The translations under genes and the position numbers were made by a program. This document shows positions 2,751 to 25,912 of a DNA stretch of 47,193 nt, in pieces; positions within the stretch are counted from its first letter, which is position 1; each line of letters opens with the position of its first letter. The notes beneath the pieces are model-generated. The model did not search any database. It worked only from the letters and a program-made list of their open reading frames with translations, and was not told where the DNA came from. The stretch covers positions 1 to 47,193 of the forward strand of contig CBDUPD010000001.1 in assembly GCA_965368985.1 (NCBI GenBank), written 5' to 3'. This DNA comes from an uncultured Spongiibacteraceae bacterium. GTDB taxonomy: Bacteria > Pseudomonadota > Gammaproteobacteria > Pseudomonadales > DT-91.

Positions 2751-3397
2751 GCGGTTTTCTCCGTTGTGATGGGTAATTGATTAATTAACTTGTGAATGGG
2801 TTGGCCCAGTTGCTGTATTTGCAAAGTTGTATTGCCACCAGACAACATCACTTGTTCTGCTTTTTGTGGATCGCCGATGAGTAGTGGTGGTTTGATAGGG
2901 TAACCATCTTTGCCATTGTCACGTTCAGTAATGCCGCGTAAATATTTTGGATGGCGCTGCGGTGGTTTATTAACAAAACCCATGTAGCGCTTTTGAAATT
3001 CATTGGCACGAAATGGCATCTCAGTTACAGTTACCGAACACAACTTTACCCAGCCCCCCATATCATCAAGTACGGCATGGATGAGTGGATCATCAAAAGC
3101 AATGCTCTGGTAACTTCCGATTCTCGATATGGCTTTTTCAACTTTGGCCCAGGCTTGCAATGCTTTGGTTTCACCACAGCCCTCGATGAAACGCACGACA
3201 TCTGCGGGCTTTGGAAAAAACTGTCCGCAATCAGGATTGTTGATGTGTGATTGAAAAGCTTGTCGCACATCGCATAACTCAAAGCGTTTAAGTGACTGCC
3301 AGTAAATATCTGTTAGTGCCTCAGAGATTGCTTTGCCATACAGCTCTCCGATACCGGCAATCATGGCAGTGAATTTTGGAATATCACTCGGCAACAT
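2747..3397 (-). CDS. Replicative helicase loader-like protein (G39P-like N-terminal domain)
   Basis: 216 aa. Pattern F..MIAGIGELYGK...WQSLKRFELCDVRQAFQSHI...FFPKPADVVRFI resembles loader/inhibitor-of-G40P family proteins. It lies immediately downstream of the initiator gene. Confidence 0.5.
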   Translation of the reverse strand: MLPSDIPKFTAMIAGIGELYGKAISEALTDIYWQSLKRFELCDVRQAFQSHINNPDCGQFFPKPADVVRFIEGCGETKALQAWAKVEKAISRIGSYQSIAFDDPLIHAVLDDMGGWVKLCSVTVTEMPFRANEFQKRYMGFVNKPPQRHPKYLRGITERDNGKDGYPIKPPLLIGDPQKAEQVMLSGGNTTLQIQQLGQPIHKLINQLPITTEKTA

Positions 3398-4319
3398 TAG
3401 CTTCTTCCTCGGCGATTTTTTTATTCATCCAACGCTCTAGGGTTTGTACGTTGGCTTGTGTTTTCCGATCAGCCTCACTGATAGGCCGTGGGGGCTGATG
3501 GTAGTTATGCATGAAGCGGTCGATTTGATCGCCATCGCGTAAGATCACATGCAGGCCGTCATAGCGTTGCCCACGATCGTTATCGCCGATGTTGTGTGGG
3601 GTATAACTGCAACCGGTGATGGCATGACAAAGCTGCTCAACGTTGTAACCAGACTTGAGCGCTTTGCGGATAATGGCTTTGCGTTTGTCATCGAGTTTGG
3701 CGTTAGGGTGATTCATCACTGTTTTCCAATGATCAAAAATCTGACTGGTGGCATTGGTATCGGTTGACGGTCGCGTCACCGACGCGTCAATACTTCCTTT
3801 CCCTATTCCATACTCCATATTCCCTTCCATATTCCCTTCCATATTCCATATTCCCCCCGGGCATGCCCGTGACGCTTCAGCCACGGGTGATTCACGCGTG
3901 GAGCACGCGTCGGTCACGGATGAGTCATCTGCTGTTACATCCTTGTTTTTAGGGATCTTTGTTGTTTCAAAAGGAGTGGATTCTTCAGGCGAAGGAATAT
4001 CACTGGCCATTTCACGGTGATTAATTTGTTGATGACGAGACCAGGAAGGAATAGAGCCGTAAACCTCACCATTTTTTTCGTACTTCACGATAAAGCCACG
4101 CGTGACCAATGCGTCAAGCACGCATGAAATATCGATGTCATCATAGGGAAATACATCTAGTTTTAACCGCCGTGGTCGCCAACGAAATCTGCCGTCTCGA
4201 TCACAGCAAGTAAATAATGCGATAAATGCCAACCGTAGCGGCAATTGGGATGCTATTTCTGCTTCAAATAAATCTTCATGTTTAAATAATTCAGGTTTTA
4301 CCGTACGTATCCTGGCCAT
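3384..4319 (-). CDS. Replication initiator (lambda O analogue) with a conserved phage C-terminal domain
   Basis: Start moved to MARIRTVKPELF (ATG at 4319, RBS GAGG upstream, 8 nt after the upstream stop). The C-terminal FDHWKTVMNHPNAKLDDKRKAIIRKAL...ITGCSYTPHNIG resembles the phage replication-protein C-terminal domain. A repetitive linker (MEGNMEGNMEYG) is encoded by the iterons. Confidence 0.65.
   Translation of the reverse strand: MARIRTVKPELFKHEDLFEAEIASQLPLRLAFIALFTCCDRDGRFRWRPRRLKLDVFPYDDIDISCVLDALVTRGFIVKYEKNGEVYGSIPSWSRHQQINHREMASDIPSPEESTPFETTKIPKNKDVTADDSSVTDACSTRESPVAEASRACPGGIWNMEGNMEGNMEYGIGKGSIDASVTRPSTDTNATSQIFDHWKTVMNHPNAKLDDKRKAIIRKALKSGYNVEQLCHAITGCSYTPHNIGDNDRGQRYDGLHVILRDGDQIDRFMHNYHQPPRPISEADRKTQANVQTLERWMNKKIAEEEANVAE
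3802..3858. repeat. Iteron-like tandem repeats (CCATATTCC core, 12-bp register); candidate replication origin inside the initiator gene
   Basis: CCATATTCCCTT at 3815-3826 and 3827-3838. CCATATTCC at 3839-3847 and 3846-3854. Degenerate copies at 3802-3816. Flanked by the 12-bp palindrome CGGGCATGCCCG (3858-3869) and the inverted repeat GTCACCGACGCGT (3775-3787) / ACGCGTCGGTCAC (3905-3917). Confidence 0.55.
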
Positions 4320-4329
4320 TCTTACTACC

Positions 4330-4740
4330 TCATTCAGTATTGCCAAATGCGCGCATTGCATTGGCTTGTTGAAACCATTGATGAGATTCATCCCATACTA
4401 TTCGCCGACTCACTGGATTGACGATGCGCTCCTGCACACTGCCATTATCGTTTGCTGTCCAAATAATTAATTCCTTGGGCTGACGCTTGCCATGAAGAAT
4501 AAATACCGTCCAGACTTTTGTTTTGATAAGTGATTCCAATGTAATTAGCTGGCCCTTGGGCACAGGCACACCAATGTGCTTGGTTTCATACAATAGAAAT
4601 TGTCCGTGGCGCTCGACCACCGCATCAAAATCCATGGGCATAATGGCGGGGCCAAATGCACCTTTGAGCCAGTCCCAATCAAACAAGCCGTCAAACCCCG
4701 CAGGTTTGGCCCCATCAAATAATCGCTGGTTATTAATCAT
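4330..4740 (-). CDS. Hypothetical early protein, possible PD-(D/E)xK nuclease fold
   Basis: 136 aa. PMDFDAVVERHGQFLLYETKH gives a D...E-x-K arrangement. The gene is tightly packed between the ParB-like gene and the initiator. Confidence 0.45.
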   Translation of the reverse strand: MINNQRLFDGAKPAGFDGLFDWDWLKGAFGPAIMPMDFDAVVERHGQFLLYETKHIGVPVPKGQLITLESLIKTKVWTVFILHGKRQPKELIIWTANDNGSVQERIVNPVSRRIVWDESHQWFQQANAMRAFGNTE

Positions 4741-5539
4741 GTCGCTTACTCCTCTCCATTAAAAAATCGTGTTGCTGTTGGTGAGTCGATGTGGCAATCT
4801 TTGCTGCGAGTGATACTGAAATTGATTTCTTGTCCATTGCTGTTATTAGTGCAGGTATGCCTAGCTGGATAACCTTTTTAGCGCGCCGGTAAGCATCCCG
4901 ATTAGTAAATCCTGCAAGCTTTGCTGAAATATCATCGGATTTGCCTTGAAGATGGGAGCATTTGCGCCTACCTTTTCGGTTACCAAGCCGGTTTTCGTGG
5001 TTGATTGCGACAAAAACTCGGTCACTAATTGTGATAAGCTCATTGAGTTCAGTAATCAGCCGCACACCTAGCAGCAGCGCTTCAGTGTCTACAACAATGG
5101 CGGTGATAGTTGCATGGCCTAATGCTTTGTGCGCTTCAAGCCTTAAGTGACCAGTAATTAAGCTGAGATCAGCACCTACAATGATTGGTTTTGCTAACTC
5201 ATGTTTATCTTGGGATAGGGGAATTTGCTCCCGCTTTATGTTAGTTACCGCAATGTTACGGATCGGAATATTGATGGCTTTGGTGCCATCATTGTCGCGC
5301 AATCGCCGCATTACTTTGTTTGCCGCCACTTCATCAGGGGCTAATCTTTCAGTACTCACACCTGTTATTTCCTCGGTTAAAATTGCATATTGATAAGGAA
5401 TCGCGTCATCACGATTCAGCCAGTTATTCACTTGTGATCGCTTAGCACCAATTCTCTTCGCTAACCCAGCGACACTGCTGCAGAAGCGAATCGCCTCTAG
5501 TAGCGCTCGTCTTTTTGTTTCGTATTTGTCCACAAACAT
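4733..5539 (-). CDS. Cro/YdaS-like HTH fused to a ParB-like (ParB N-domain plus HTH) protein; first gene of the rightward early operon
   Basis: 268 aa. N-terminus: AGLAKRIGAKRSQVNNWL...ILTEEITGVSTERLAPDE (YdaS/Cro-type HTH). Middle: IPIRNIAV...LITGHLRLEAHKALG (ParB/sulfiredoxin-type G-H-x-R motif). C-terminus: KKVIQLGIPALITAMDKKSISVSLAAKIA (ParB/KorB-type HTH). Confidence 0.7.
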   Translation of the reverse strand: MFVDKYETKRRALLEAIRFCSSVAGLAKRIGAKRSQVNNWLNRDDAIPYQYAILTEEITGVSTERLAPDEVAANKVMRRLRDNDGTKAINIPIRNIAVTNIKREQIPLSQDKHELAKPIIVGADLSLITGHLRLEAHKALGHATITAIVVDTEALLLGVRLITELNELITISDRVFVAINHENRLGNRKGRRKCSHLQGKSDDISAKLAGFTNRDAYRRAKKVIQLGIPALITAMDKKSISVSLAAKIATSTHQQQHDFLMERSKRHD

Positions 5540-5716
5540 CCCTTTGCCCTCGTAAATTCCATAACGCTTAATGCGATTCCATTTGGAAACCTCCGTTTTC
5601 GTGGGTCATGGCAAGTTCTGCCACCCATCAATATTTTACTGAGGGCGATTGGCACATATGTGTCACTTTTCCTCGGTACAGTAAGGGCTGAATCAACAGA
5701 CCTTAGGAGTAAAAAT
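5540..5716. promoter_or_regulatory. Divergent early control region (switch region)
   Basis: Non-coding gap between the divergent early operons. Contains a perfect 10-bp palindrome CACATATGTG (5653-5662) and the hairpin TGGCA-agttc-TGCCA (5609-5623). I could not place the promoters with confidence. Confidence 0.4.
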
Positions 5717-5854
5717 ATGGTGATGATTGACCAGATAACCGCGAAGGAGCGCTTGGCTTCGTTGCAGATTAAGCGTGGAGGTTGGCGAAAATGGTTTGGT
5801 TTTTTGATCCCAAAACATCGAATCAAGGGGGTGGAAAATGAGCGCAAAATTTAA
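5717..5854 (+). CDS. Small basic hypothetical protein (45 aa), first ORF of the leftward early operon
   Basis: AGGAG lies 7 nt upstream of the ATG at 5717. Its 3' end overlaps the next gene's start. No recognisable family. Confidence 0.35.
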   Translation: MVMIDQITAKERLASLQIKRGGWRKWFGFLIPKHRIKGVENERKI

Positions 5855-6236
5855 GCAAATGGTGCGTGATTTGGTGGCTGACGGTATTTCACAAGTAGAT
5901 GAACTCCGTGATAGCGATAAGCGACGCTTAACGGCCATATATCTCAAAGAAGCCGAGAAAATTGAACAATGGGAATTTATAACTGAGCCACCGGCTTGTG
6001 AAAAATTGCCGGGGTTTTTAATTGATTTATTGGAGGGTCGTCGTAACGGGACATTAGGGTTTTATTCGCCTGAAATAACGCTTGCCATCACTATGGCAAC
6101 GGCAGCGATTAATTGGTGTATGGACAATATCGAGGAAGAGATCGAAGAAGCCGTTGCTGAACAAAAAGCTGAGCAACGATTTGATCATCGCAAGGGTTAC
6201 AGCAATTACAAAGAGGATTTAGATTATGGCTACTGA
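5838..6236 (+). CDS. Hypothetical early protein (acidic C-terminal half)
   Basis: 132 aa. A purine-rich RBS is present and the 3' end overlaps the ERF start. No recognisable motif. Confidence 0.6.
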   Translation: MSAKFKQMVRDLVADGISQVDELRDSDKRRLTAIYLKEAEKIEQWEFITEPPACEKLPGFLIDLLEGRRNGTLGFYSPEITLAITMATAAINWCMDNIEEEIEEAVAEQKAEQRFDHRKGYSNYKEDLDYGY

Positions 6237-6864
6237 TGCAGGACTAAAGAACTTAGCCACAAAAATGATCCATATCATGAGCGATGTGGAATACATCCAG
6301 AAAACAGGCTTTAACCAATTTCATAAATATAAATATGCAACCGAAGCTGATGTCGCGGCAGCGTTTGCTAAGGCTATGCAGCAGCATAATGTTTTTATGT
6401 TTTCATCGGTTGTAGAGCGACATTGCCAGTCCTATCAGACGCGTGGAAATAAAGAATCCTTTTTAATTACTGTGAAGCTACAAGTGACTTTTGTTGATGC
6501 AGATAGTGGAGAAAGTTTTACGGGTATTTTTTTCGGTGATGGCTCAGATCCAGATGACAAAGGAATTTACAAAGCCATCACTGGCGCACAGAAGTATGCA
6601 TTGATGAAAACATTTTTGGCCGAAACGGGTGATGATCCTGAGCGTGATGAAGCTTCACCCCCACAGCAAAAGACAAACATTGATAAATCCAAATTAATTA
6701 CTTCATTAGAGTCGAAGGCTCGTCAAGGTACAGAAGTATTTCGCGCCGAATGGCGCACGTTAACCGCAGAGCAACGTGATGTGGTGCGCGATAAAACCGG
6801 TGTTTTTCAACAGCTTGCTAGTCAAGCTGATCAATCATTATCACAGGAGGATATTCCACAATGA
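6226..6864 (+). CDS. ERF-family single-strand annealing recombinase
   Basis: 212 aa. Contains NQFHKYKYATEADV and KGIYKAITGAQKYALMKTFLAETGDDPERD, typical of the ERF superfamily. Followed by Gp157 and SSB, as in many siphoviruses. Confidence 0.85.
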   Translation: MATDAGLKNLATKMIHIMSDVEYIQKTGFNQFHKYKYATEADVAAAFAKAMQQHNVFMFSSVVERHCQSYQTRGNKESFLITVKLQVTFVDADSGESFTGIFFGDGSDPDDKGIYKAITGAQKYALMKTFLAETGDDPERDEASPPQQKTNIDKSKLITSLESKARQGTEVFRAEWRTLTAEQRDVVRDKTGVFQQLASQADQSLSQEDIPQ

Positions 6865-7358
6865 ATTTAAGTTTATATAAAGTTGCAGATGAATACTTGC
6901 AGGTGTGTGAAGCACTGCTCGATCAAAAGGATGAGTTGCCCGCTGAAGTTATCGCCAATACGATTGAAGCATTAGCCGGTGACGTTGAGAAAAAATCAAT
7001 TAACGTCGCAGCCTATTACAAAAATCTGCAAAAGGAAGTGGCGGCAATGAAAGAGTATGAAAAAGAAATGCGTGAACGTCGCCGTCGTATTGAAAATCAT
7101 GCTGAGCGATTACGTGAATATTTAAAGTCAAATATGCATCGTTGCGGGATTCAAAAAATTAAAGGCACTGAATTCACTATTAGTATTCGCAAATCACCAG
7201 ACTCGGTTGTAATAGATGATGCGTATAGCTTGCCGCAAGATTATATCGATCACATCGATATCCACCCTGACAAAGCAAAAATTAAATCAGCCATTCAAGG
7301 CGGTGAAAAAGTGGTGGGCGCACATTTGGAAACGGGCAGCAGTTTAATTATTCGGTAG
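6861..7358 (+). CDS. Siphovirus Gp157-like protein
   Basis: 165 aa. Coiled-coil N-terminus (YKNLQKEVAAMKEYEKEMRERRRRIENHAERLREYL) followed by GTEFTISIRKSP. The position between erf and ssb is characteristic. Confidence 0.65.
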   Translation: MNLSLYKVADEYLQVCEALLDQKDELPAEVIANTIEALAGDVEKKSINVAAYYKNLQKEVAAMKEYEKEMRERRRRIENHAERLREYLKSNMHRCGIQKIKGTEFTISIRKSPDSVVIDDAYSLPQDYIDHIDIHPDKAKIKSAIQGGEKVVGAHLETGSSLIIR

Positions 7359-7368
7359 GAGATAAGTG

Positions 7369-7755
7369 ATGAGTAATGGCGTTAATAAAGTAATTTTGGT
7401 TGGCAATTTAGGTGCTGATCCTGAAGTGCGTTATTTCCCAAACGGTGGTGCCACTACCAAGCTCCGTGTCGCCACCAGTGAATCGTGGAAGGACAAGGAA
7501 ACCGGGCAAAAACAAGAGCGCACTGAGTGGCATCAAGTTTGTTTCTTTAATCGATTGGCTGAAATTGCTGGGGAGTATTTGCAAAAAGGCAGCAAGGTCT
7601 ATGTCGAAGGAAGTTTACGAACACGTAAGTGGGCGGATAAGAATGGCAATGACCACTACACCACGGAAGTTATTGGCAAACAAATGCAAATTCTTGATAG
7701 CCATAAAGCATCAACTGATGGTGATGCTATGGCAAACGAAGATATTCCATTTTAA
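7369..7755 (+). CDS. ssb: Single-stranded DNA-binding protein
   Basis: OB-fold N-terminus [23 protein letters not shown]...ERTEWH and an acidic C-terminal tip NEDIPF. The ATG at 7369 lies 8 nt after AGGAG; the ORF track starts at a GTG at 7366. Confidence 0.95.
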
Positions 7756-7772
7756 GGACGGAGGAGCAAATC

Positions 7773-7973
7773 ATGTTGGTATTACAACGATATCCAGGGC
7801 AATCAATTTGGGTTGGCGACAATATTCAAATCACCATTTTAGGCAATTCCAATGGTGTTACACGGGTTGGGATTGAAGCCCCCAGGGAAGTCAGAATTAC
7901 CCGCGACGAGATTAAAGACACGGAGCCACGCCATGAGCAGCGTTCAGTTATTACCCAGACTCATTCGGCTTAG
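7773..7973 (+). CDS. csrA: CsrA/RsmA-family RNA-binding translational regulator
   Basis: 66 aa. MLVLQRYPGQSIWVGDNIQITILG...VTRVGIEAPREVRITRDEI is collinear with the canonical CsrA [24 protein letters not shown]...VRIGVNAPKEVSVHREEI. A strong RBS GGAGGAG is present. Confidence 0.85.
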   Translation: MLVLQRYPGQSIWVGDNIQITILGNSNGVTRVGIEAPREVRITRDEIKDTEPRHEQRSVITQTHSA

Positions 7974-8289
7974 GGATGCTCCAGCCTATTTGGGCATGGA
8001 TCGGCATCGCTTTAATGGCGAGGTACGGCCCAATTTGACCGAAATTCCGGTCGGATTGCAGGGAATTGCCTTCGATAGACTTGATTTAGACGCCTGGGTA
8101 GACGATTATAAGCATCGTAGTGGTCGTCCCGCGGCATCCAACCGTAGGAGTTTGGAAATATGGGACGAAAACGAACGCCGGGGCTCTACAAGCGTGGGGA
8201 TTCCTGGCACATTGACAAGAAAGTCTTCGGACGCCGACTTTGCGAAAGCACTGGCGCTAACGAACTCGAAGAAGCCGAGAAGTACTTAG
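7933..8289 (+). CDS. xis: Excisionase/AlpA-like small HTH protein
   Basis: Start taken at MSSVQLLPRLIRLRDAPAYLGMDRHRF... (GGAG 7 nt upstream). AlpA/Xis-like pattern ending in ...DLDAWVDDY. Lies immediately upstream of, and overlapping, int. Confidence 0.6.
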   Translation: MSSVQLLPRLIRLRDAPAYLGMDRHRFNGEVRPNLTEIPVGLQGIAFDRLDLDAWVDDYKHRSGRPAASNRRSLEIWDENERRGSTSVGIPGTLTRKSSDADFAKALALTNSKKPRST

Positions 8290-9287
8290 CGAGGCGTCTT
8301 GAAGAAGTGAGACAGGCTGCCGTCTATGGCGTGCGGCCTAAGCGGACTTTCAAGGAAGCGGCCACTAAATTTCTGATGGAAAATCAGCATAAGCGTAGCC
8401 TACGCTCAGACGCAGGTAGGCTCAAAGTGCTGGTGGAATATATCGGGAATATGTCGCTAGAGTCCATCCATATGGGATCACTGCAACCCTTTGTTGAGGG
8501 TAGGCGGCAAGATAAGGTTAAGACGCGGACGATTAATCACGGATTACAAGTCGTGCGTCGGATTTTGAATCTTGCAGCCAGTGAGTGGATGGATGAATAC
8601 GGATTAACTTGGTTGGCAAACGCGCCCAAGATCAAGCTCTTACCAGAGCATGATTTGCGCAAGCCCTATCCGCTGAATTGGGATGAGCAACACAAGCTCT
8701 TTAATGAGTTGCCGACACATTTGGAAAAAATGGCATTGTTTGCCGTGAATACTGGGTGTCGGGACCAAGAGGTTTGTCAGTTACGCTGGGATTGGGAAAT
8801 TAAAATCCCAGAGTTAACATGCCTCATGGTGTTTATTATTCCAAGTGAGTTAGTTAAAAATGGAGAAGAGCGCTTAGTTGTTTGTAATGGTACAGCGCGT
8901 TCTGTTATCGATGGTGAACGTGGTAAACATCCCACACATGTGTTCAGTTTTCGAGGCAGACCGTTAGCCCGGATGTTATCAACGGGTTGGCGGCAGGCTA
9001 GAGCTAAAGCTGGTTTAGATCATGTCCGAGTACATGATTTGAAGCATACATTTGGCCGAAGGCTACGTGCAGTGGGTGTGAGTTTTGAGGATCGGCAAGA
9101 TCTTTTGGGTCACCGATCAGGACGGATCACCACGCATTACTCATCGGCTGAGTTGCAGAATCTCTATGAGGCGGCCAATAAAGTTTGTGAAAAGCAACAA
9201 AGTGGGGTGGTACTTACCTTGTTGCGTAATCCAAACTGCAGGCCAGTAACTGACATTAAGCAAGGTGCGCAACTGGTTGCGCTTTAG
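8160..9287 (+). CDS. int: Tyrosine integrase
   Basis: 375 aa. N-terminal arm-binding-type GLYKRGDSWHIDK. Catalytic signature R (CRDQEVCQLRW), HDLKHTFGRRL (H-x-x-R) and LLGHRSGRITTHYS (H, Y). RBS AGGAG. Confidence 0.95.
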   Translation: MGRKRTPGLYKRGDSWHIDKKVFGRRLCESTGANELEEAEKYLARRLEEVRQAAVYGVRPKRTFKEAATKFLMENQHKRSLRSDAGRLKVLVEYIGNMSLESIHMGSLQPFVEGRRQDKVKTRTINHGLQVVRRILNLAASEWMDEYGLTWLANAPKIKLLPEHDLRKPYPLNWDEQHKLFNELPTHLEKMALFAVNTGCRDQEVCQLRWDWEIKIPELTCLMVFIIPSELVKNGEERLVVCNGTARSVIDGERGKHPTHVFSFRGRPLARMLSTGWRQARAKAGLDHVRVHDLKHTFGRRLRAVGVSFEDRQDLLGHRSGRITTHYSSAELQNLYEAANKVCEKQQSGVVLTLLRNPNCRPVTDIKQGAQLVAL

Positions 9288-9358: not shown

Positions 9359-9448
9359 CTTGATTTAATTGGTGGGCCCACCAGGATTCGAACCTGGGAC
9401 CAAAGGATTATGAGCCCGCAACGTGAATCATAACCACTTGATTTAATT
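9359..9448. repeat. 12-bp direct repeat CTTGATTTAATT (9359-9370 and 9437-9448) bracketing the tRNA-like core
   Basis: Exact repeat read directly from the sequence. Each copy overlaps an IHF-consensus-like match on the minus strand. Confidence 0.6.
9370..9414 (-). other. 3' half of a tRNA with CAU anticodon (Met or Ile2 type); core of the attachment site, not a complete gene
   Basis: The minus strand reads CTCATAA-TCCTT-TGGTC-CCAGG-TTCGAAT-CCTGG-TGGGCCC-A-CCA, i.e. anticodon loop, stem 3' arm, variable loop, T-arm, acceptor 3' arm and CCA. Upstream sequence cannot form the acceptor 5' arm, D-arm or anticodon 5' arm. Confidence 0.75.
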
Positions 9449-9902
9449 AAACTTTATGCCGCGGGAAACCACTACAATTGGCGTATAATGTCTAACGATG
9501 TCGTACCCAAATACGCAAATCTCCCGCAAGCACCAGTGAGCATTCTAAGCTACTTTTGGGGTGAAGAACAACTACAACTATTAGCTAAGCGAAGAGCCAT
9601 TATTATATAGTCAGTCCTAACGAATATCATCTATATAACTAGTGATGATGTTGTCTATTGCCCTGCCAGATTGGCTTAAGTACCTGTCAAATTTATTCAT
9701 ATTCTTTACCCATTTAGCCGCGTCTGTCGGACGTGATAGTCCCTAGTCCTTTTGTTTAATGAGACTAATTATTCATCTATGGAGCCTATTATAAATCCAT
9801 AAAAATTCTTGACTTACATGCTGACTTTTGCCAGTGGAAATTCGTTATTCGTAGGGATACAATGATATTTGGACTTTAGGATGAACTTATGGGAGCTTTA
9901 AA

Positions 9903-10742
9903 ATGAAAAAGCGTGAGGAATTGGAGGGGTTGCGGCACAGGCGTGTTACTTCTGTTGGGGCTAATATTGAAGATGAAGAAATTTTAACCGATGAAGAATC
10001 TTCCGAAGAGGAAGACGCTCACGGTCCATGCGAACGAATTAGCAGATGGATGCAGGATAGTTGCTATCAAATGATGGCGTATACATTTTGGGATAGTACG
10101 GTTAGTGGTTTTAAGCCAGGACGTGTTAGAGCCTTTGCTTTATTGGATATACAGGATGATGACAGATTGTTGTTGGTGGGAGAAGGAAGTGGCTTAGATT
10201 TCGAATGCCTACCAAGAAATGTTGACAAGAAAGCATTAAGAGCATTTGATTTTTCTTCTGAGATGGTACGTCAAAGTAAGGTAAAGGCTAGAAAATATGG
10301 TATTCCTGAAGAAAATTGTTTTGAGGGTGATGCTCAGAAGTTGCCTTTTACTAATGAAAAATTCGATAAAATTTATTTCCCGCTTTCTCTAGCTTCTATA
10401 CCGAATCCAAAGTTGGCGCTTAGGGAAGCAGAAAGAGTGTTGGCACCCGGTGGTAAAATAGTTGTTTTTGAAAAACTAATGGATGAAGGTGCTAATGTTA
10501 CTTGGGGGCGACAGTGTTTGAATGTTGTAACAAGCAGTATCTTTGCTGATATTAATAGAAACTTACCTGGTATGTTTGGCAAACATTCTCCTCTAAAAAT
10601 CACCCATTATGAGTCTTTGGAAAATAAGCTAGATGGGTATTTTGCTGGTTATGTGGGGGGGCATTATCGCTTGGCGGTGGTTGTAAGAGCCGCAGATTAT
10701 GCCGAACAGCCCGCAGTAAAGGCTGTGATTATGCATAACTAA
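9903..10742 (+). CDS. Class I SAM-dependent methyltransferase (UbiE/PmtA-like) with an acidic N-terminal extension
   Basis: 279 aa. Motif I LLLVGEGSGLD, then GDAQKLPFTNEKFDKIY and VLAPGGKIVVFE. The N-terminal ~45 aa are rich in E/D/S (TDEESSEEEDA). Confidence 0.8.
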   Translation: MKKREELEGLRHRRVTSVGANIEDEEILTDEESSEEEDAHGPCERISRWMQDSCYQMMAYTFWDSTVSGFKPGRVRAFALLDIQDDDRLLLVGEGSGLDFECLPRNVDKKALRAFDFSSEMVRQSKVKARKYGIPEENCFEGDAQKLPFTNEKFDKIYFPLSLASIPNPKLALREAERVLAPGGKIVVFEKLMDEGANVTWGRQCLNVVTSSIFADINRNLPGMFGKHSPLKITHYESLENKLDGYFAGYVGGHYRLAVVVRAADYAEQPAVKAVIMHN

Positions 10743-10746
10743 ATAT

Positions 10747-11970
10747 TTATTCTACAGGAACACCAAAAAAGATTACTAATAGCATTAATATTAATAATGA
10801 ACTGAATAAACTTATTTTGGTAAGTTTATTGATGGCCTCTTCAGTTTTACTTGATAAAATTATGGCAATTAAACATTGGATGGCATAATAAATCGCAAAT
10901 GCTTTAGACGCTAATGTAATTATTTGATATATATTGGTTGCCCAAGTTAAAATGATTGCAACAAGACAAACGCCTACAATTCCCTTTTTAATTGTTACCC
11001 TATTATTTGTTGCTTCTGAAACTAAACCTGCACTCCCTAGGGTATCAGCTATTGCAGCACTAAACTGACTCATCATTGCGGCTATGATAAGGAAGAAAGG
11101 AAGTATGGGGGCAACCATACGACACAGTTCAATTGCGGCTACTTCAGTCACGCTATGAATATTATTAAACAACACCATCGCAGAACTCACAAATAAAATA
11201 TAAATCGTGCCTGAAATGATTTGAGCATAACGCATGGTTTTAATACGCATATCAGCTGAATATACTTGACCAAGGTAACGAGATGTCTCAAATCCTTGAA
11301 CGATAATTAATATGCCTAAGAGTCTTTGAAAAGATTCCTGAATAGAATAATGAGCATGTGTTGCCAAGTGCCATTGATCATTCAACCAAAGATCAGTGTT
11401 AAAAACGAAGTGGCCAAGGATCATTGAAAATATAATGATTAATTTTACATTCACAGAATATTCTTCAAAGACTTCAAGCATATTTAAGCCACGCAGCCAA
11501 CCCACAATGCCTATAAAACCTAAGATAGAAGTAGTAATGATATTTTCTAGCAAAGGATCACTAAAGCCAAGCCCACGGAGTAAAAATGCACTCAGTAACT
11601 TTAAATAAAATGCAACAGAAATAATATAGGCGCCACCAAGTACAGGTCGTGATATGGTCTCTAATTTCGTAACAACAAAAGCACCACTCTGTTTTTCCAG
11701 CAAGGGCTCTAAATGTAGGATGTTAAATCGTATAGCGCTGCCAAGAAAAAAAGCGATCACCGTAATTAAACTTATAACTGCAAATGCCCATTTTCCTGTG
11801 GTAAGGATAAGCAAAGGCGCGGATACTAAAAATCCACTGCCAATAATTGAGGCGAGCGGAGTAACAGTTGCCTGCCAAATTTGAGAAGAACGCATTTTTT
11901 TGGAAAAAAACACCAATGAAAGTGAGGCGATCGCTATAATTATAAGGCCGTTTTCATATCCAGCTGCCAC
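10747..11970 (-). CDS. Polytopic inner-membrane permease of unknown family, last gene of the copA operon
   Basis: 407 aa, about 11-12 hydrophobic segments. Only 11 nt downstream of the cupredoxin gene on the same strand. No NRAMP, CDF or ZIP signature that I recognise. Confidence 0.55.
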   Translation of the reverse strand: MAAGYENGLIIIAIASLSLVFFSKKMRSSQIWQATVTPLASIIGSGFLVSAPLLILTTGKWAFAVISLITVIAFFLGSAIRFNILHLEPLLEKQSGAFVVTKLETISRPVLGGAYIISVAFYLKLLSAFLLRGLGFSDPLLENIITTSILGFIGIVGWLRGLNMLEVFEEYSVNVKLIIIFSMILGHFVFNTDLWLNDQWHLATHAHYSIQESFQRLLGILIIVQGFETSRYLGQVYSADMRIKTMRYAQIISGTIYILFVSSAMVLFNNIHSVTEVAAIELCRMVAPILPFFLIIAAMMSQFSAAIADTLGSAGLVSEATNNRVTIKKGIVGVCLVAIILTWATNIYQIITLASKAFAIYYAIQCLIAIILSSKTEEAINKLTKISLFSSLLILMLLVIFFGVPVE

Positions 11971-11981
11971 ACCAATATCCT

Positions 11982-12344
11982 TTATTCAACGATTAATTTT
12001 CCGCGATACATGCCCATCTGACAGGTAAACTCAAATTCACCCTGTTCTTCATTACTCAAAGTTAGTGTTATTGCTTGGTCAATTGGTAACTCTTGACTGA
12101 TATTGAGTTTGTCAAAAATCACCCATTCAGCGCAAGGGCTGGGATCTTTGCGTAGAAATTTAAGATGAGCAGGTTTGTTGTGTTTAGCGCGAATTATATT
12201 TGGACTATAGGTACCACCATCGACAATGATGTCAATGATGCTACTTTCAGCGTATGAAATCGCTTTTGATTTAAAAAGCCAAAACCAGTATATGATTCCT
12301 GTAATAAATAGTATGCCAATAACATTCACCACGATAAAACTCAT
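11982..12344 (-). CDS. Membrane-anchored cupredoxin-like protein
   Basis: 120 aa. N-terminal TM segment, then a C-terminal ...PCAEWVIF...EFEFTCQMGMYRGKLIVE typical of the cupredoxin_1 domains encoded next to copA. Confidence 0.7.
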   Translation of the reverse strand: MSFIVVNVIGILFITGIIYWFWLFKSKAISYAESSIIDIIVDGGTYSPNIIRAKHNKPAHLKFLRKDPSPCAEWVIFDKLNISQELPIDQAITLTLSNEEQGEFEFTCQMGMYRGKLIVE

Positions 12345-12345
12345 A

Positions 12346-14592
12346 TTAGGACTCCTTTACTCGTAGCCAGCGTAATCGATTAGCATTGCTGACAACCGTT
12401 AACGACGACATTGCCATTGCTGCCCCAGCTATCATTGGATTAAGTAATAGCCCTATAAATGGATATAAAATACCAGCAGCTACGGGGATCCCTAACCCAT
12501 TATAAATAAATGCACCGAACAAATTTTGCTTAATATTATTTAATGTAGCTTTGGAGATCGCTATTGCATCGACAACCCCTTGTAACGATCCACGCATCAA
12601 AGTGATATCGGCACTTTCAATCGCGACATCCGTCCCTGTTCCAATGGCAAAGCCAACGTTAGCTTTCGCTAATGCAGGTGCGTCGTTGATTCCATCACCC
12701 ACCATGCCAACAACTTCTCCATTTCTCTGCAATTCTGCAATTTTTTCAGACTTATCTTGAGGTAACACTTCAGCAAAAAAATGATCAATCCCTGCTTGTT
12801 TTGCAATAGCTTGTGCTGTCAGTTGATTATCACCCGTGATCATAACGACCTTTAAGCCAAGCTGTTGCATAGAAGAAATTGCAGCTTGTGAATCCGTTTT
12901 GATTGGATCAGCTACAGAAACAATACCTGCAATTTGTCCATCAGTAGCAAGATACATTGGAGTTTGCCCTTTTGAAGCTAACTGATCAGCAATTTTAGGT
13001 AATTGGAGTAAGTCAATGTCATTATCTTCCATGAGCTTTCGATTACCAAATAACATAGATTTTCCAGATAATTGGGCGCGGATACCGTGGCCTGCTACGG
13101 CTTCGAATGTTTCATGTGACAGTAACGATAAATTTTTATCAGCCGCCGCTTTTACAATGGCTGCTGCTAGTGGATGTTCTGATCCTTTTTCAATGCTTGC
13201 CGCCCATTGAAGTAATGTTGTTTCATCCCATCCATTCACTGGATGCAATGCAGTAACACTCGGTTGTCCTTCTGTAATTGTGCCCGTTTTATCTAAGACA
13301 ACCGTTGTTAAATTTCCTGACTCTTGCAATGCATCCCCGTTACGGATTAATATCCCTGATTCTGCAGCCTTGCCTACACCAACCATGACAGATATAGGAG
13401 AAGCCAATCCTAAAGCACAAGGACACGCTATAATGAGCACTGTCATTGCCGAAACTAACATGTAAGCAATTTTTGGATCTGGGCCTAAATCAAACCATAC
13501 AAGTGCAGCGATCACAGCAATAATCAATACTGAGGGTACAAAAAAAGCAGAGATTAAGTCAGCTAAACGTGCTATCGGGGGCTTAGAATTTTGGGCTTGT
13601 TTTACTAAGCTAACAATTTGTGCCAGTGCGGTATCTTTGCCAATTCGAGTTGCCTTAAAAATAAAGCTACCCGTTTTATTAAGTGTGCCGCCAACGACCT
13701 CATCACCAACATTTTTTTCAACGGGCAGCGGCTCGCCAGTTAACATTGATTCGTCAACAGCAGAATGCCCTTCAGTGATAAGACCATCGATAGGAATTTT
13801 TTCACCAGGTCTGACACGTATAACATCTTCCACGGCAACTTGTTCAATAGGTATATCTAGTTCTTTTTCATCTCGAATGATTCTTGCAGTTTTAGGTTGC
13901 AAGCCAATAAGTCGTTTGATGGCTTCAGAGGTTTTTCCTCGAGCACGCATTTCTAATGCTGCGCCTAAATTCACTAAAGCAATAATAATTGCTGATGCTT
14001 CAAAGTAAGCATGTTGAGCAAGGCTGGGTACACTATTGGGAAATAACACGACAATCATGGAAAATAGCCAGGCCGCCCCCGTTCCCAAACCTATAAGTGT
14101 ATCCATTGTTGCTGTATGAGCCCAAAAAGATCGCCAAGCACCACGATAGAAATGACCACCTGAATAAAACATGACGGCTAATGTTGCTAGCCCAATGAAA
14201 ATCCAAGCAATCTGTCCTGTTGTCGTGGATAAATTAGGGAGGCTATTAGCAAGGCCAAATAAGAATAAAGGAATGCCCAGTATTCCTGCAACAAAAGTTT
14301 TTAATAGTAAACGGCGGTAATGTTGTAATTCCTGATTTTCTTCATTTGTATTGTTTAGTAGTGAAGCTTGATAGCCTATGTCGCTGATTGTGGCAATAAG
14401 TGCCTCATGCTGAGCCCTACCTTTCACAGTAGCTGTTTGATCGGCAAAATTAACAGTTGCGTCTATTACTCCCGCAACTTTTTTTAGCGCTTGCTCAATT
14501 GTGCGTACGCAGCTAGCACAGCTCATACCCATAATGCGTAGATGCACTACTTGTTCTTTATTGTGGTGAATATTTTGTTTGGCTTCTTTCAT
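12346..14592 (-). CDS. copA: Cu(I)-translocating P1B-type ATPase
   Basis: 748 aa. HMA domain GMSCASCV, transmembrane CPC motif ([11 protein letters not shown]), DKTGTIT phosphorylation site, and [10 protein letters not shown]. Confidence 0.95.
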
Positions 14593-15014
14593 GACTGCTT
14601 ACCCTTTTTATTAGCTTCACTATACAAAGTTTCTAAGATAGGACATTGACTAAGCGGGACTTTGCCATCACATGAATTAGCCAAACACTCAAGTGCTTCA
14701 GCAATTTCTTCAAGGATTTTTATTTTTTTTCGCACAGCGCGTGACTTTTCAAGTACGCATTGTTTTATATTTTTGCTGGACGCTTTAGCGTTCTCTTGAA
14801 TATTAAGCAATTCAAGGATCTCTTTTAAGCTGAATCCAGCTTCTTTAGCGTTGGTTATAAAGCGTACACGTTTTAAAGTTTCTTTAGTATAAAGTCGATA
14901 GCCATGTTCACTACGAGCAGGCTTTGGCAGCAGCCCTGAACGTTCATAATGGCGTATAGCAACAGCGCTAACCCCAGCCTGCTTAGCTAATTGGCCTACT
15001 GTCAGCTTATTCAT
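14589..15014 (-). CDS. MerR-family metal-responsive regulator (CueR/HmrR-like)
   Basis: Start moved to [29 protein letters not shown] (ATG at 15014, GGAG upstream). C-terminal Cys pair ([10 protein letters not shown]). ATGA overlap with the copA start. Confidence 0.85.
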
Positions 15015-15044
15015 GGCATTCTCCACAAAATCGTCTACAATGTT

Positions 15045-15085
15045 ATTATATACCTTTACCTTAACATAAAGGTATATGCTATAAT
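15045..15085. promoter_or_regulatory. Divergent MerR-type operator/promoter
   Basis: Perfect 10-bp inverted repeat TATACCTTTA (15049-15058) / TAAAGGTATA (15067-15076). Plus-strand TTTACC - 19 nt - TATAAT (15080-15085) has the long spacer typical of MerR-activated promoters. Minus-strand TATAAT at 15045-15050. Confidence 0.6.
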
Positions 15086-15122
15086 ACCAATTATAGCTGG
15101 TTATTGCCAAAATGGTGAGAAT

Positions 15123-16394
15123 ATGATGATGAAAACACAATTAGCCAAATGTGGGCTACTAATAAGCGTTATTTTGTTACCTTACCAAGGTGCATCCGCC
15201 CATACCTTAACCTTGAAAAAGGTAGAGCAAGTTGCACTGAATACTGCTCCAGAGATATCGCAGTTGCGCAATAAAGAGGAAGCTTTGCGTGAAGCAGCAG
15301 TTGCTGCAGGTCAATTGCCTGATCCTAAATTGCAGGCAGGAATCATTAATGTTCCCACGGACACTTTCAACCTAACCCAAGAAAATATGACCCAAATTAA
15401 AGTTGGTATTGCACAAACTTTCCCTAAAGGTCATTCTTTGTCCATTAAGTCAGAGCAGAAACAGTTACTTGCTCAAGCAGAACAATTCAAGGGGTTAAAT
15501 ACAAAAGCTGAGATTTTGCGTACAGTGCGTAATGAGTGGCTCAATTTGTATTACTGGATCCAGGCTAAGAAAATTATTGAGGAAAATCGAGTCATTTTTC
15601 AGCATCTTGTTAAAGTCACTGAGTCAATGTTAGGCGCTGGAAAAAGTAATCAACATGATGTTTTACGCGCACAATTAGAATTATCTCAGATTGAAAACCG
15701 ACAAATTCAAATTACTGAGCAGATCGATACTGCACGTGCACGATTGGCACGCTGGGTTGGAAAAGCAATGGCGCGTGAAGCGAAGCCTAACCGCTTACCT
15801 CATTGGCCAAAGCCGCCGAGTCAACAGATATTAGAGCATCAAATTAATCAACATCCTCATTTGAGGACCGACGCTACTCTAGTTGCAGCAAGCCATCAAG
15901 GTGTTCAGCTAGCTAAGCAGCAGTACAAGCCTGCTTGGACAGTAGGGCTGAATTATAGCTTTCGCCAAGGTAACAACCCCATGATGGGGGGTAGGCGTGC
16001 CGATTTTATTGGTGCTCAAGTTAGTGTGGATTTACCCATCTTCACAGCCAAGCGACAAGACAAAGAGCTGGCAGCAAGTTTAGCTGAGCTTAATGCAACA
16101 CGGGATTCCGAACTTTCAGATTACCGCAAAATGGTCAGTGAACTCTCTCAATTTTGGGTTGTGTGGCAAAAACTAACCAAGCAAGCTGCGCTTTATCAAA
16201 AGCGGTTGAATCCTGAAGCGAAACAGTACGCTGAGGCAACATTAACGGCTTATCAAAATGATCAGTCAGATTTTCCAACAGTAGCACGAGCGCATGTTAC
16301 CGAATTAAATACACAGTTGGATGGATTAAAAATCGAAGTGGAGCGTGACAAAGCTAGAGTTGCCTTATTGTACTTAGAAGGGGATGACAAATGA
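15123..16394 (+). CDS. cusC: Outer-membrane efflux factor (TolC/CusC family)
   Basis: Start moved to MMMKTQLAKCGLLISVILLPYQGASA (signal peptide, RBS GGTGAGA). Two OEP-type repeats. 3' overlap with the adaptor gene. Confidence 0.8.
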   Translation: MMMKTQLAKCGLLISVILLPYQGASAHTLTLKKVEQVALNTAPEISQLRNKEEALREAAVAAGQLPDPKLQAGIINVPTDTFNLTQENMTQIKVGIAQTFPKGHSLSIKSEQKQLLAQAEQFKGLNTKAEILRTVRNEWLNLYYWIQAKKIIEENRVIFQHLVKVTESMLGAGKSNQHDVLRAQLELSQIENRQIQITEQIDTARARLARWVGKAMAREAKPNRLPHWPKPPSQQILEHQINQHPHLRTDATLVAASHQGVQLAKQQYKPAWTVGLNYSFRQGNNPMMGGRRADFIGAQVSVDLPIFTAKRQDKELAASLAELNATRDSELSDYRKMVSELSQFWVVWQKLTKQAALYQKRLNPEAKQYAEATLTAYQNDQSDFPTVARAHVTELNTQLDGLKIEVERDKARVALLYLEGDDK

Positions 16395-17632
16395 AAAAAT
16401 ATGTAATAGGTATTGTCGTAGTCATCGGAATATTTTTATCGGGTATGCTGGTACAGTATGTGGGGATGAATTCAACTGATTCAGTTAACGACCAAAAAAT
16501 AAAAAATGCAACTTCGAAAAAACCGCTTTATTGGGTTGCGCCAATGGATCCTACTTATCGTCGGGATAAACCAGGGAAATCTCCAATGGGTATGGATTTG
16601 GTCCCTGTTTATGCTGAAACTGATAGTGAGGGGGCTGTAAAAATCTCTCCAACCGTAGAACAAAATCTGGGTGTTCGGACTGAAAAGGTTACTCGACAGA
16701 CCTTGTCAAGGCAGATTGATACCGTAGGTTATGTGATGGTCGATGAAAATAGAATTGAACATGTTCATACCTATACAGATGGGTGGGTCAAACGTTTGTT
16801 GGTGAAAACAACTGGGGAGCATGTTAATAAAGGTCAGTTATTATTTGAGTTATATGCACCGATACTCATCAATGCGCAAGAAGAATATTTGCTTGCAATG
16901 AGAAGTGGGAATAAAGCATTAACCAATGCTTCTCACAAAAAACTCTTGGCATTAGGCGTTGCAGAAAGCCAAATACAAGAGTTAAAGAAAACAAAGAAAT
17001 CAATGCAGCTTGTGAAATTTTTCGCAGGACAAGCAGGTATTGTATCCGAATTAAAAATTAGAGAAGGTATGTTCGTCAAGCCAGAAAAAGACCTTATCAC
17101 GTTAGAAGACCTATCTCATATATGGGTTATTGGTGAAGTCTTTGAGAGACAATCTGGATGGGTTAAAGAAGGCCAACCTGCTGAAGCGAGTTTACCGTAT
17201 CTTCCAGGTAAAAAATGGGTTGGGGTAGTTGACTATGTCTACCCCAGACTTGATCCCACCACGCATACGCTAAAAATTAGACTCCGCTTTGACAATCCAA
17301 AAGAAGTATTAAAACCTAATATGTATGCTGACATTACTATTTTTGCTGTACCTGAGAAAGATGTACTTGCTATACCGCGTGAAGCAGTTATTTACACCGG
17401 AAAAGGCGCACGGGTGATAGTAAGTTTAGGCGATGGGCGCTATGTCGCAAAACCAATCAAGCTAGGCATCGAGTCAGGCAATAAGATTGTTGTACTCTCA
17501 GGATTAAAAGAGGATGAGAAAATTGTTACATCATCACAATTTTTAATTGATTCCGAATCAAGTTTGAAAGCAAGTTTTGGTCGAATTAATTCAGAGAATA
17601 CAAAACCAAAAGACCAACATCAGCATCATTGA
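16391..17632 (+). CDS. cusB: RND periplasmic adaptor (CusB-like)
   Basis: 413 aa. N-terminal TM/signal sequence, YWVAPMDPTYRRDKPGKSPMGMDLVPVY (degenerate heavy-metal-binding domain), HlyD-type barrel-sandwich region, His-rich tail DQHQHH. Confidence 0.85.
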   Translation: MKKYVIGIVVVIGIFLSGMLVQYVGMNSTDSVNDQKIKNATSKKPLYWVAPMDPTYRRDKPGKSPMGMDLVPVYAETDSEGAVKISPTVEQNLGVRTEKVTRQTLSRQIDTVGYVMVDENRIEHVHTYTDGWVKRLLVKTTGEHVNKGQLLFELYAPILINAQEEYLLAMRSGNKALTNASHKKLLALGVAESQIQELKKTKKSMQLVKFFAGQAGIVSELKIREGMFVKPEKDLITLEDLSHIWVIGEVFERQSGWVKEGQPAEASLPYLPGKKWVGVVDYVYPRLDPTTHTLKIRLRFDNPKEVLKPNMYADITIFAVPEKDVLAIPREAVIYTGKGARVIVSLGDGRYVAKPIKLGIESGNKIVVLSGLKEDEKIVTSSQFLIDSESSLKASFGRINSENTKPKDQHQHH

Positions 17633-17645
17633 ATGAGGAGTTTGT

Positions 17646-20600: not shown

Positions 20601-20780
20601 ATTATTGCAGGCTTACTACCCATCATGCTGGGATCAGGAACAGGATCGGAGGTTATGAGACGAATTGCAGCGCCTATGGTTGGGGGCATGTTAAGTGCAA
20701 CATTGCTCACATTAGTGGTGATACCTGCTGTATTTTTAGTGTGGAAAAGCGCTCGATTAAAAGGAGAAAGCAATGATTGA
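17646..20780 (+). CDS. cusA: Heavy-metal efflux RND permease, CusA-like (Cu/Ag type)
   Basis: 1044 aa. Methionines are present in the three contexts WMYMP, TMIET and RIDMLATG, which correspond by motif to the CusA Met-triad positions. Confidence 0.85.
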   Translation: MINWIIKWSIKNRFLVLVATFFLIAAGFYALKNTPIDAIPDLSDVQVIVKTPFPGQAPQVVEDQVTYPMATAMLAVPGAVTVRAYSFFGDSYVYVIFKDGTDPYWARSRVLEYLNQVSSKLPPNARPELGPDATGVGWVYEYALVDKTGKHDLSQLRSIQDWFLKYELQTVPGVSEVATMGGMVRQYQITLEPNRLRAYGLSLAKVKKAIQRANQEVGGSVVELGEAEYMVRTNGYLQKIKDIEAIPLGVNKNGTPILLTDIAKVSLGPQMRRGIAELDGKGEVVGGIIVMRQGENALKTIDAVKAKLAQLQKSLPAGVKVVETYNRSSLIQRAIDNLKSKLFEEFIVVALVCLLFLFHFRSSLIIIISLPIGILSAFIIMYWQGINANIMSLGGIAIAIGAMVDGAIVMIENVHKHMEKTELTDENRWQVIQKATLEVGPPLFFSLLIITLSFLPVFALQAQEGRLFAPLAFTKTYAMAAAAGLSITLVPVLMGYFIRGKIVPEHKNPINRFLIAVYKPFIHMVLKAPKAILAATLVIVLVSYWPLSHLGSEFMPDLDEGDWMYMPTTLPGVSIGKARQILQQTDKLIKTFPEVKSVFGKIGRAETATDPAPLTMIETVIQLKPRDEWRKGMTPAKLKQEMNQRVKIPGVTNAWVMPIKTRIDMLATGIKTPVGIKISGPNLKEIQKIGEQLEPVLKRIPGTASVYSERVAGGRYINVHIDRHKAARFALNIADIQEVVSTAIGGMNVTQTIEGLERYPVNLRYPQTYRDSVSKLKLLPIVTPSGAHIPLADVAHVTIVDGPPAIKSENARLTGWVLVDINNRDLGSYVKEAQQIVNEQIKLPPGYALSWSGQYEYMERAKQRLMTVVPVTLAIIMLLLYLNFRRFLEVAVIMGTLPLALIGGVWLLYALNYNLSVAVGVGFIALAGVAVEIGVLMLVYLNQALAHRKEAADAENRNLTKNDIKEAIIGGALLRVRPIMMTVSAIIAGLLPIMLGSGTGSEVMRRIAAPMVGGMLSATLLTLVVIPAVFLVWKSARLKGESND

Positions 20781-21336
20781 AATTATTCCAAATTGGCATC
20801 CGTTATTTGTTCACTTTACAGTGGCACTAGTCACTATGTCAGGTGTATTTTTTATTGGAGCTAAGTTACTTTCCAATAGAAAATTTGGTGATGAAATGCT
20901 TATCGCAGCACGCTGGTTTCTTTGGACAGGGGGGTTATTTACTATAGCAACGGTGATAGCAGGATTTTTTGCATACTATTCCGTTGCGCACGATACTCCT
21001 TCACATATTGCAATGACAGCACATCGTAATTGGGCGCTGGTTACATTGGTTGGTATTTTATTTTGTGTTGGATGGTCAATTGTTCAATACAAGAAAAAAA
21101 TACAACCAACAATATCTTTTATATTAGCGATGCTGATTGTTCTACTTCTACTTTCGTCTACAGCGTGGCGTGGCGGGGAACTAGTTTACCGTTATGGTAT
21201 AGGAGTGATGTCACTTCCACAAAGCTCAGGAGTTGGGCACCAACATGAACACGGTGGAAATACTGAGGAAAACGGTCATCATTTAAAAAAGAAAACTTCG
21301 AATGCAAGTGAGCAACACGGTAATCATAAACACTAA
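20773..21336 (+). CDS. DUF2231-like membrane protein with a His-rich tail
   Basis: 187 aa, 4 TM segments. C-terminus GVGHQHEHGGNTEENGHH...EQHGNHKH. Overlaps the cusA stop. Confidence 0.6.
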   Translation: MIEIIPNWHPLFVHFTVALVTMSGVFFIGAKLLSNRKFGDEMLIAARWFLWTGGLFTIATVIAGFFAYYSVAHDTPSHIAMTAHRNWALVTLVGILFCVGWSIVQYKKKIQPTISFILAMLIVLLLLSSTAWRGGELVYRYGIGVMSLPQSSGVGHQHEHGGNTEENGHHLKKKTSNASEQHGNHKH

Positions 21337-21374
21337 ACTAATAAAATTAGTTTTTAATGTGATGGTAATTTAGA

Positions 21375-21398
21375 GGCACCTGACTTTTTCCAGGTGCT
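21375..21398. terminator. Weak hairpin between convergent operons
   Basis: GCACCTG-actttttc-CAGGTGC. There is no clear U-tract on either strand. Confidence 0.3.
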
Positions 21399-21521
21399 AA
21401 TATCTCGTAGCATTTAATGCTTTGTTATTTTTTTACGGTAAAAGCTTTTATAGGGTTAATGACATGCTGAGTTCACTTAATAGTTTGCCATTATGTACGT
21501 TTGAGCTCCTATCGAATTGTG

Positions 21522-24719: not shown

Positions 24720-24739
24720 CTCTTATGAATCCCTTCTGT

Positions 24740-25909: not shown

Positions 25910-25912
25910 TTG

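Follow-up and report, generated by a model that had tools for sequence, protein, structure and literature searches.

The DNA analyzed here is a stretch of 47,193 nucleotides, to which we refer as the window. On its plus strand it carries a unit in which orf5838, ERF, Gp157, SSB, csrA, a xis-like ORF and a tyrosine integrase follow one another, packed tightly or overlapping. The upstream part (5838–7755) comprises orf5838, the ERF recombinase (6226–6864), Gp157 (6861–7358) and SSB (7366–7755), as assigned with the Pfam families ERF, Sipho_Gp157 and SSB. Downstream lie a csrA paralogue of 66 amino acids (7773–7973), an excisionase-like gene of 118 amino acids (7933–8289) and the integrase gene int of 375 amino acids (8160–9287), all on the plus strand. 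No promoter-like sites were found on the plus strand inside the unit from orf5838 to int. csrA closes a lambdoid ERF-Gp157-SSB recombination operon, ahead of xis and int. An earlier note on this DNA had placed csrA directly before xis, and this was borne out: csrA overlaps the excisionase-like gene, which is followed by int.

The csrA gene was assigned by Pfam and PHROG profiles, structure alignment and codon comparison. According to the ORF list and its translation, the ORF at 7773–7973 starts with ATG and encodes the 66-residue product MLVLQRYPGQSIWVGDNIQITILGNSNGVTRVGIEAPREVRITRDEIKDTEPRHEQRSVITQTHSA. The Pfam CsrA profile PF02599 matched this protein over model positions 1–49 of 53 with 65.9 bits (E = 3e-18), compared with a gathering cutoff of 27, and PHROG 9500, a 'CsrA-like regulator', matched with E = 1e-14. 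Profile searches, which the earlier note had named as a check, thus place the protein in the CsrA family. Residues 1–48 align without gaps with the crystal or NMR structures of RsmE (2JPP) and the CsrA chains 1Y00 and 1VPZ. The phage protein contains the stretch T43-R44-D45-E46-I47, and the RNA-binding residues L2, L4, R6, V40, I42, R44, E46 and I47 in β1 and β5 are kept. M1, L2, L4, R6, G9, G15, G33, A36, P37, R44 and E46 are invariant in its clade and in canonical CsrA. The proposed collinearity with CsrA, including the conserved arginine, is hence confirmed by the PF02599 score, the ungapped alignment and the presence of R44. From the alignment to 2JPP, 1Y00 and 1VPZ, the phage CsrA would be expected to form a domain-swapped homodimer. 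The 66-residue product is a bona fide CsrA-family protein.

Scores against the NCBIfam equivalog models TIGR00202 and NF002469 stayed below the respective cutoffs (52.6 versus 70.1 and 51.7 versus 73). We therefore conclude that the phage CsrA is a divergent paralogue and not the housekeeping csrA. A chromosomal-type context, i.e., lysC-csrA, was only found in an unrelated locus (L011). Moreover, the phage CsrA has Q, Y and T in place of the canonical residues T5, R/K7 and H43. Given these replacements and the sub-equivalog scores, its binding specificity may deviate from that of canonical CsrA. For codon comparison we used two close metagenomic relatives, L012 and L034. Compared with L012, 12 codons differed, 11 synonymously and 1 non-synonymously; compared with L034, 14 codons differed, 12 synonymously and 2 non-synonymously. 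The dominance of synonymous changes means that csrA is under purifying selection. It is highly improbable that the ORF is a decaying, non-functional remnant or spurious. The sub-equivalog NCBIfam score is the single observation in favor of such a remnant, and it stands against a strong Pfam score, invariant key residues, synonymous to non-synonymous ratios of 11:1 and 12:2, and occurrence in at least eight contexts. This conservation pattern effectively refutes the remnant.

The excisionase-like ORF shares 41 nt with csrA and 130 nt with int, and its Shine-Dalgarno sequence (SD; GGAG, 7922–7925) lies inside the csrA coding sequence. Its product matched PHROG 13517 (E = 9e-28), and most of its 925 homologues belong to species of Legionella, while Pfam and NCBIfam searches with the 118-residue protein gave no match. 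In an AF2 model of mediocre overall confidence (62.8), residues ~10–62 reached pLDDT values of 84–89. This N-terminal domain is modeled with an excisionase-type winged-helix fold, for which the best PDB matches were Pukovnik Xis (4J2N), RdfS and the GIsul2 excisionase. The match to Pukovnik Xis had a probability of 0.99, a TM score of 0.68 on the target and E = 0.035, with the query model as a whole being mediocre. On the basis of this modeled fold, the label 'xis' for 7933–8289 appears reasonable though unproven.

The integrase matched PF00589 (Phage_integrase, 57 bits) and PHROG 1. Its catalytic domain and an adjoining att core that corresponds to the 3' end of a tRNA gene mark it as a tRNA-targeting tyrosine integrase. 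xis and int overlap in different frames by ~130–150 nt, an arrangement kept in L007, L008, L009, L045, L053, L054 and L057 and present in every member examined, from low- and high-GC hosts alike. At Int residues ~30–40, the other frame codes for a C-terminal helix of Xis, 'DFAKAL', which is conserved. This dual-coding stretch is unusually long and conserved. In phage lambda, the xis/int overlap amounts to ~20 nt, int has the pI promoter and is subject to sib retroregulation, and the Int/Xis ratio is set partly post-transcriptionally. As in lambda, the leftward early operon ends with xis and int, which overlap each other and lie beside attP. In contrast to lambda, they overlap by ~130 nt here and an extra gene for an RNA-binding protein extends over the xis start.

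Beside int, on the minus strand at 9373–9417, we found an attP-type core, i.e., the 3' 45 nt of a tRNA-Met from the anticodon loop to the CCA end (Rfam tRNA, 29.9 bits). ARAGORN reported no full tRNA for these positions, and they align with L. anisa tRNA-Met. At gathering thresholds, this partial tRNA was the only Rfam match in the window, with no sponge RNA of the RsmY, RsmZ or CsrB type. In the integrated relatives L034, L053 and L057, int adjoins a complete tRNA-Met gene; the window departs from that sequence at the anticodon loop. The window holds no second copy of the tRNA-Met core and no direct repeat of at least 18 nt. From the lone core and the divergence at the anticodon loop we conclude that the window carries an attP-type junction. 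A 12-nt direct repeat, CTTGATTTAATT, is found at 9361–9372 and 9439–9450, on either side of the tRNA-like attP core; possibly, these copies are arm-type or core-flanking sites of the integrase.

In circularly permuted order, the window contains a complete temperate genome of the lambdoid siphovirus type in its excised (attP) form. On the minus strand, genes from terS to the tail genes lie at 47155–27684, and early, replication and Q-like genes at 5539–147. Between the tail genes and attP, where lambda has its b region, a heavy-metal resistance cargo of 18 kb was observed (9903–27337). Its genes encode a methyltransferase, a cupredoxin, a P1B-type ATPase (12346–14592), a MerR regulator (14589–15140) and two CusCBA/Czc-type RND efflux sets (14991–20780 and 21522–27337). 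Such a metabolic cargo is unusually large for a phage of 47 kb. Close DNA relatives of the window were found neither among GenBank phages nor among PLSDB plasmids, and a lookup of proteins identical to the window integrase returned none. The Legionella-dominated xis family, the L. anisa-like att core and relatives located at tRNA-Met/rpoD as in L. anisa suggest that the phage host most likely belongs to the Legionellales. The only isolated tailed phage of this order is LME-1, a podovirus (PMC12407071). Tailed phages of Legionellales are nearly undescribed, and siphovirus types essentially so, which lends the present genome with its metal cargo practical interest.

We reached the closest CsrA proteins with pattern scans of loci and an exhaustive HMMER search; a word-indexed homologue search with CsrA had returned only three matches. 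In all eight contexts reached via CsrA similarity (8/8), csrA lies directly before a xis-int pair and usually overlaps xis, and this holds for two unrelated xis/int types. In the lineage of the window (L012, L034, L035), csrA is directly upstream of xis-int. In phage relatives (L013–15, L036, L016), one of which is integrated at the tmRNA gene, xis and int are of a lambda type and not homologous to those of the window; in L016 and L036, csrA belongs to the same clade as that of the window, with 66–70% identity. Further contexts were an island with NB-ARC/TPR genes (L047/48), an element in a MAG with R-M genes (L053), an ICE with TraK/TraE beside sucABCD (L054–56), an island at tRNA-Met/rpoD (L057/58) and an island with NUDIX and acetyltransferase cargo (L059/60). 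The position of csrA thus stayed constant while the upstream neighbor and the xis/int type varied. When elements were instead sampled via xis similarity, csrA was present in one of seven. We conclude that this CsrA clade is tied to xis-int modules, whereas the modules are independent of csrA.

The IMG/VR matches L004–L006 and most of the genome matches L017–L033 were set aside as distant or chromosomal CsrA outside the clade. In L004 (IMGVR_UViG_3300037067_015836, 3290–8450), a distant CsrA homologue is found among dozens of copies of a short repeat located between genes. Translation of the repeat gives GRVELKIRGGCR or LQPPLIFNSTLP, depending on the strand, and its layout is reminiscent of CRISPR arrays or a family of dispersed repeats. 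Among the best CsrA-family matches in a library of 1.84 billion proteins, many were multi-domain proteins of 110–310 amino acids with two to four tandem CsrA stretches; these could possibly be covalently linked 'pseudo-dimers'.

The earlier note had pointed to three GGA motifs within 19 nt at the int start as the arrangement typically bound by CsrA dimers. A sequence scan located them on the plus strand exactly where claimed, within the translation-initiation region (TIR) at 8147–8165: one in the SD AGGAG (8147–8149), one in TTGGAA (8154–8156) and one directly after the start codon, ATG-GGA (8163–8165). Clusters of three GGA within 19 nt occur seven times on the plus strand of the 47-kb window, and 3 of its 48 TIRs contain three GGA. 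As background we used the TIRs of 100 non-module genes from the window and seven related loci, where at least three GGA were present in 2/100 and at least two in 16%. Compared with these, the int GGA cluster is statistically unusual.

The three motifs have different origins. The first is part of the SD, the last stems from the Met-Gly codon pair, and the middle one from Leu/Met-Glu codons of the overlapping xis frame. A chromosomal island of L. anisa without csrA (L045) has AAGGAGTTTGGATAAATGGGAC at int, with all three GGA, and L007, L009 and L049, which also lack csrA, have two. In contrast, L016 and L036, in which the csrA clade stands before a different integrase, have zero to one GGA at int. 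These cases rule out a co-occurrence of the int GGA triplet with csrA. Since the triplet is found in a csrA-less island and is absent before the other integrase, int is not a clade-wide target. GGA counts in the int TIRs of csrA-carrying elements were 3, 3, 3, 3, 3 and 2. Within the int family, 5/6 csrA-carrying versus 1/4 csrA-less lineages have three GGA, for which a one-sided Fisher estimate without phylogenetic correction gives ~0.12; we take the difference as a trend and not as a result. A single int motif fits A(N)GGA, compared with 3/3 in the csrA leader. When the int, csrA and xis leaders were folded as RNA, none did better than shuffled sequences (z from −0.04 to +1.3), and a weak hairpin of −4.7 kcal/mol that sets the int SD in a loop was not significant. 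As a sign of CsrA control the int cluster is unsupported, given the triplet in csrA-less L045, its absence in L016 and L036, the single A(N)GGA and the lack of a significant hairpin presenting the motifs. The int GGA triplet is a trait of this integrase family, partly forced by the SD, the Met-Gly pair and the dual coding with xis. The proposed functional link of csrA to the integration module is strengthened by the csrA-xis-int synteny in 8/8 contexts, but the argument from the int motifs is undercut.

Two other sites appear to be better candidates for cis targets than the int TIR, namely the csrA leader and the start of a divergent regulator. The GGA-rich csrA leader with its SD, AAGGACGGAGGAG (7756–7765, plus strand), is a candidate autoregulatory CsrA site. 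In the leader, TTTTAAGGACGGAGGAG...ATG, there are three GGA, each of which fits A(N)GGA, and this is the sole such TIR among the 48 of the window. Two to three GGA are kept in the csrA leaders of L012, L034, L013, L036 and L016, i.e., in both phage lineages.

The regulator (4733–5539, minus strand, 268 amino acids) has an N-terminal YdaS/Cro-like HTH and a ParB-like domain, as assigned with Pfam and PHROG. Its score against Pfam YdaS_toxin was 27.5 bits (E = 2.8e-6), i.e., under the 30-bit cutoff, and its PHROG matches were ParB-like. The gene lies opposite the csrA operon, with the replication and late genes following it. In five contexts (window, L016, L053, L054 and L057), a homologue of this HTH/ParB-like regulator is transcribed divergently from csrA. 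In these five csrA-carrying elements the regulator TIR contains 3, 3, 3, 2 and 3 GGA, with sequences otherwise unalignable, whereas the csrA-less relative L009 has one. The consensus for CsrA binding from SELEX is RUACARGGAUGU, with GGAUGU as its core. In the window, the regulator start codon lies inside GCAAAGGGAUGU (5536–5547), which matches this consensus at 10 of 12 positions. GGATGT is found at the regulator start in four of the five csrA-carrying elements (window, L016, L053 and L054) and at none of 177 other genes. In other words, 4 of 181 predicted gene starts have GGATGT, all of them regulators, while the shorter GGATG occurs in 5/177 others. The pattern was found post hoc in four to five related lineages, and we hence regard it as a lead and not as a demonstration.

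The best match of the window to the SELEX consensus, 11 of 12 positions, is AAACAAGGATGT at 3937–3948 on the minus strand. It is located on one mRNA with, and ~90 nt upstream of, a tandem repeat of TATGGAA (8.6 copies, or 4.3 copies of a 12-mer; 3794–3854), which is in sense on the minus strand and inside the gene for an O-like replication initiator. The repeat probably represents origin iterons. On the mRNA strand it is also the densest GGA cluster of the window.

E. coli CsrA autorepresses csrA. At E. coli csrA and at L. pneumophila csrR, GGA motifs lie over the SD or in the first codons as they do here, where binding is only predicted. L. pneumophila CsrA represses csrR via a GGA in the two initial codons (PMC4471563). 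In int, codon 2 is GGA, similar to the csrR site BS3 (PMC4471563), again with predicted binding.

CsrA proteins encoded by phages and ICEs are already known. csrA homologues were present in 30 of 2517 phage genomes (PMC7366521), surveys of GenBank and IMG/VR described phage csrA and proposed an anti-CRISPR role (PMC8450108), and Bci, a CsrA paralogue of a P. aeruginosa prophage, alters host traits (PMC7546807). In GenBank, our CsrA query matched 44 phage records, whose annotations read carbon storage regulator or CsrA-like regulator. The earlier note had called a CsrA paralogue in a lambdoid recombination module notable; with phage CsrA already catalogued, this novelty is overstated. Phage CsrA/RsmA proteins (PHROG 9500; RsmM/Bci of P. 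aeruginosa phi297-like phages; Vibrio, Providencia and Burkholderia phages) are, like the present one, products of small CsrA-domain genes in temperate early regions. They differ in sequence, with 43–51% identity over residues 1–49. In phi297 and PSTCR8lys the csrA-like gene is found near cI and not beside xis/int, and Bci has 123 amino acids including a C-terminal extension, compared with 66 here.

The earlier note had mentioned CsrA paralogues on ICEs; CsrT, LvrC and Lpp0168 of Legionella are described cases. Legionella strains have four to seven csrA-like genes, of which the accessory ones adjoin type IV secretion genes in ICEs (PMC4471563, PMC3864950), and ICE paralogues act on host traits (PMC4471563; bioRxiv 10.64898/2026.02.27.708469). 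LvrC, CsrT and Lpp0168 of pP36 share with the present protein the mobile-element origin, the probable host order, the essential arginine and the RNA-binding pockets, and one relative found in our comparison, L054, is itself an ICE. In contrast to the present gene, however, they are found in lvrRABC-type modules beside type IV secretion genes (PMC3864950, PMC4471563) and not with xis-int. By gene context the present csrA falls outside the lvrC/csrT class, since its neighbors are ssb and xis/int and its carrier is a tailed phage. In L054, TraK and TraE are located ~4 kb off, yet csrA abuts xis-int. A literature search on csrA together with excisionase and integrase genes yielded no account of a csrA-xis-int operon. 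The new element is hence the csrA-xis-int synteny in phages, an ICE and islands of Legionella-like bacteria.

How could CsrA act in this unit? We lean, with moderate confidence, towards a mobile-element CsrA paralogue that would both feed back on the switch of its own element and act on host mRNAs. This reading builds on what was observed, namely a CsrA-family protein under purifying selection, the layout of the operon, the recurring synteny and the GGA-enriched TIRs of the module. RNA binding, target identity and the direction of regulation we infer for the phage CsrA. As a small dimeric RNA-binding protein, it would recognize GGA in mRNA leaders and block ribosome binding. csrA is the first cistron of a compact csrA-xis-int unit, with csrA overlapping xis and xis overlapping int, and in this phage the early leftward recombination operon ends with this unit. 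Judging from this layout, CsrA would be made along with Xis and Int upon derepression or infection, and the three are probably translationally coupled. CsrA may feed back on its own GGA-rich leader, i.e., autorepress as in E. coli, and may act on the start of the divergent HTH/ParB-like regulator (GGAUGU); the int TIR would be a possible third cis target. It would probably also act on Csr-regulated mRNAs of the host, as do the Legionella ICE paralogues and Bci of the Pseudomonas prophage (PMC4471563, PMC7546807, bioRxiv 10.64898/2026.02.27.708469). A stricter version, which we consider unlikely, is that the CsrA clade has been recruited as a dedicated post-transcriptional part of the excision/integration switch of Legionellales elements, coupled to Xis and Int and repressing the regulator, itself and Int. 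If true, recombination directionality would be subject to a feedback timer acting on RNA; no CsrA protein is known to have such a role.

A purely host-directed cargo regulator is possible as well, although we rate it as rather unlikely. Such a protein would mimic or compete with host CsrA or titrate sRNAs of the RsmY/Z type; it would reprogram motility, growth arrest, defence or CRISPR expression, its position at xis-int would only provide co-expression with excision, and the GGA motifs of the module would be incidental. All experimental precedents are of this kind, namely Bci (PMC7546807) and Lpp0168 of the ICE pP36 (bioRxiv 10.64898/2026.02.27.708469), and the proposed anti-CRISPR use of phage RsmA (PMC8450108) agrees with it, as do the int GGA triplet found also without csrA and the xis-int modules, which mostly lack csrA (one of seven carries it). 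However, the csrA/xis overlap and the 8/8 synteny over two unrelated xis/int types are tighter than free cargo would show, and GGA-rich regulator and csrA TIRs recur in sequence-divergent elements.

It is also conceivable, but improbable, that the chromosomal CsrA of the host reads the GGA-rich int and regulator leaders as candidate targets and so ties excision and integration to the growth phase, with the paralogue modulating or antagonizing it. The three-GGA int TIR is indeed kept both in the csrA-less L. anisa island and in csrA-carrying elements, and csrR is a known case of Legionella CsrA binding to a GGA within the two initial codons (PMC4471563). These int motifs are, on the other hand, largely forced by the SD, the Met-Gly pair and dual coding, and A(N)GGA fits only one of the three.

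We thus retain, with the reserve stated above, a phage CsrA acting on its own element and on the host. CsrA paralogues of mobile elements are known to rewire host physiology, and the present locus raises the question of whether they also control the life cycle of the element itself. The overlapping csrA-xis-int operon with its GGA-rich leaders provides a testable system in which to ask whether an RNA-binding protein sets excision and integration.
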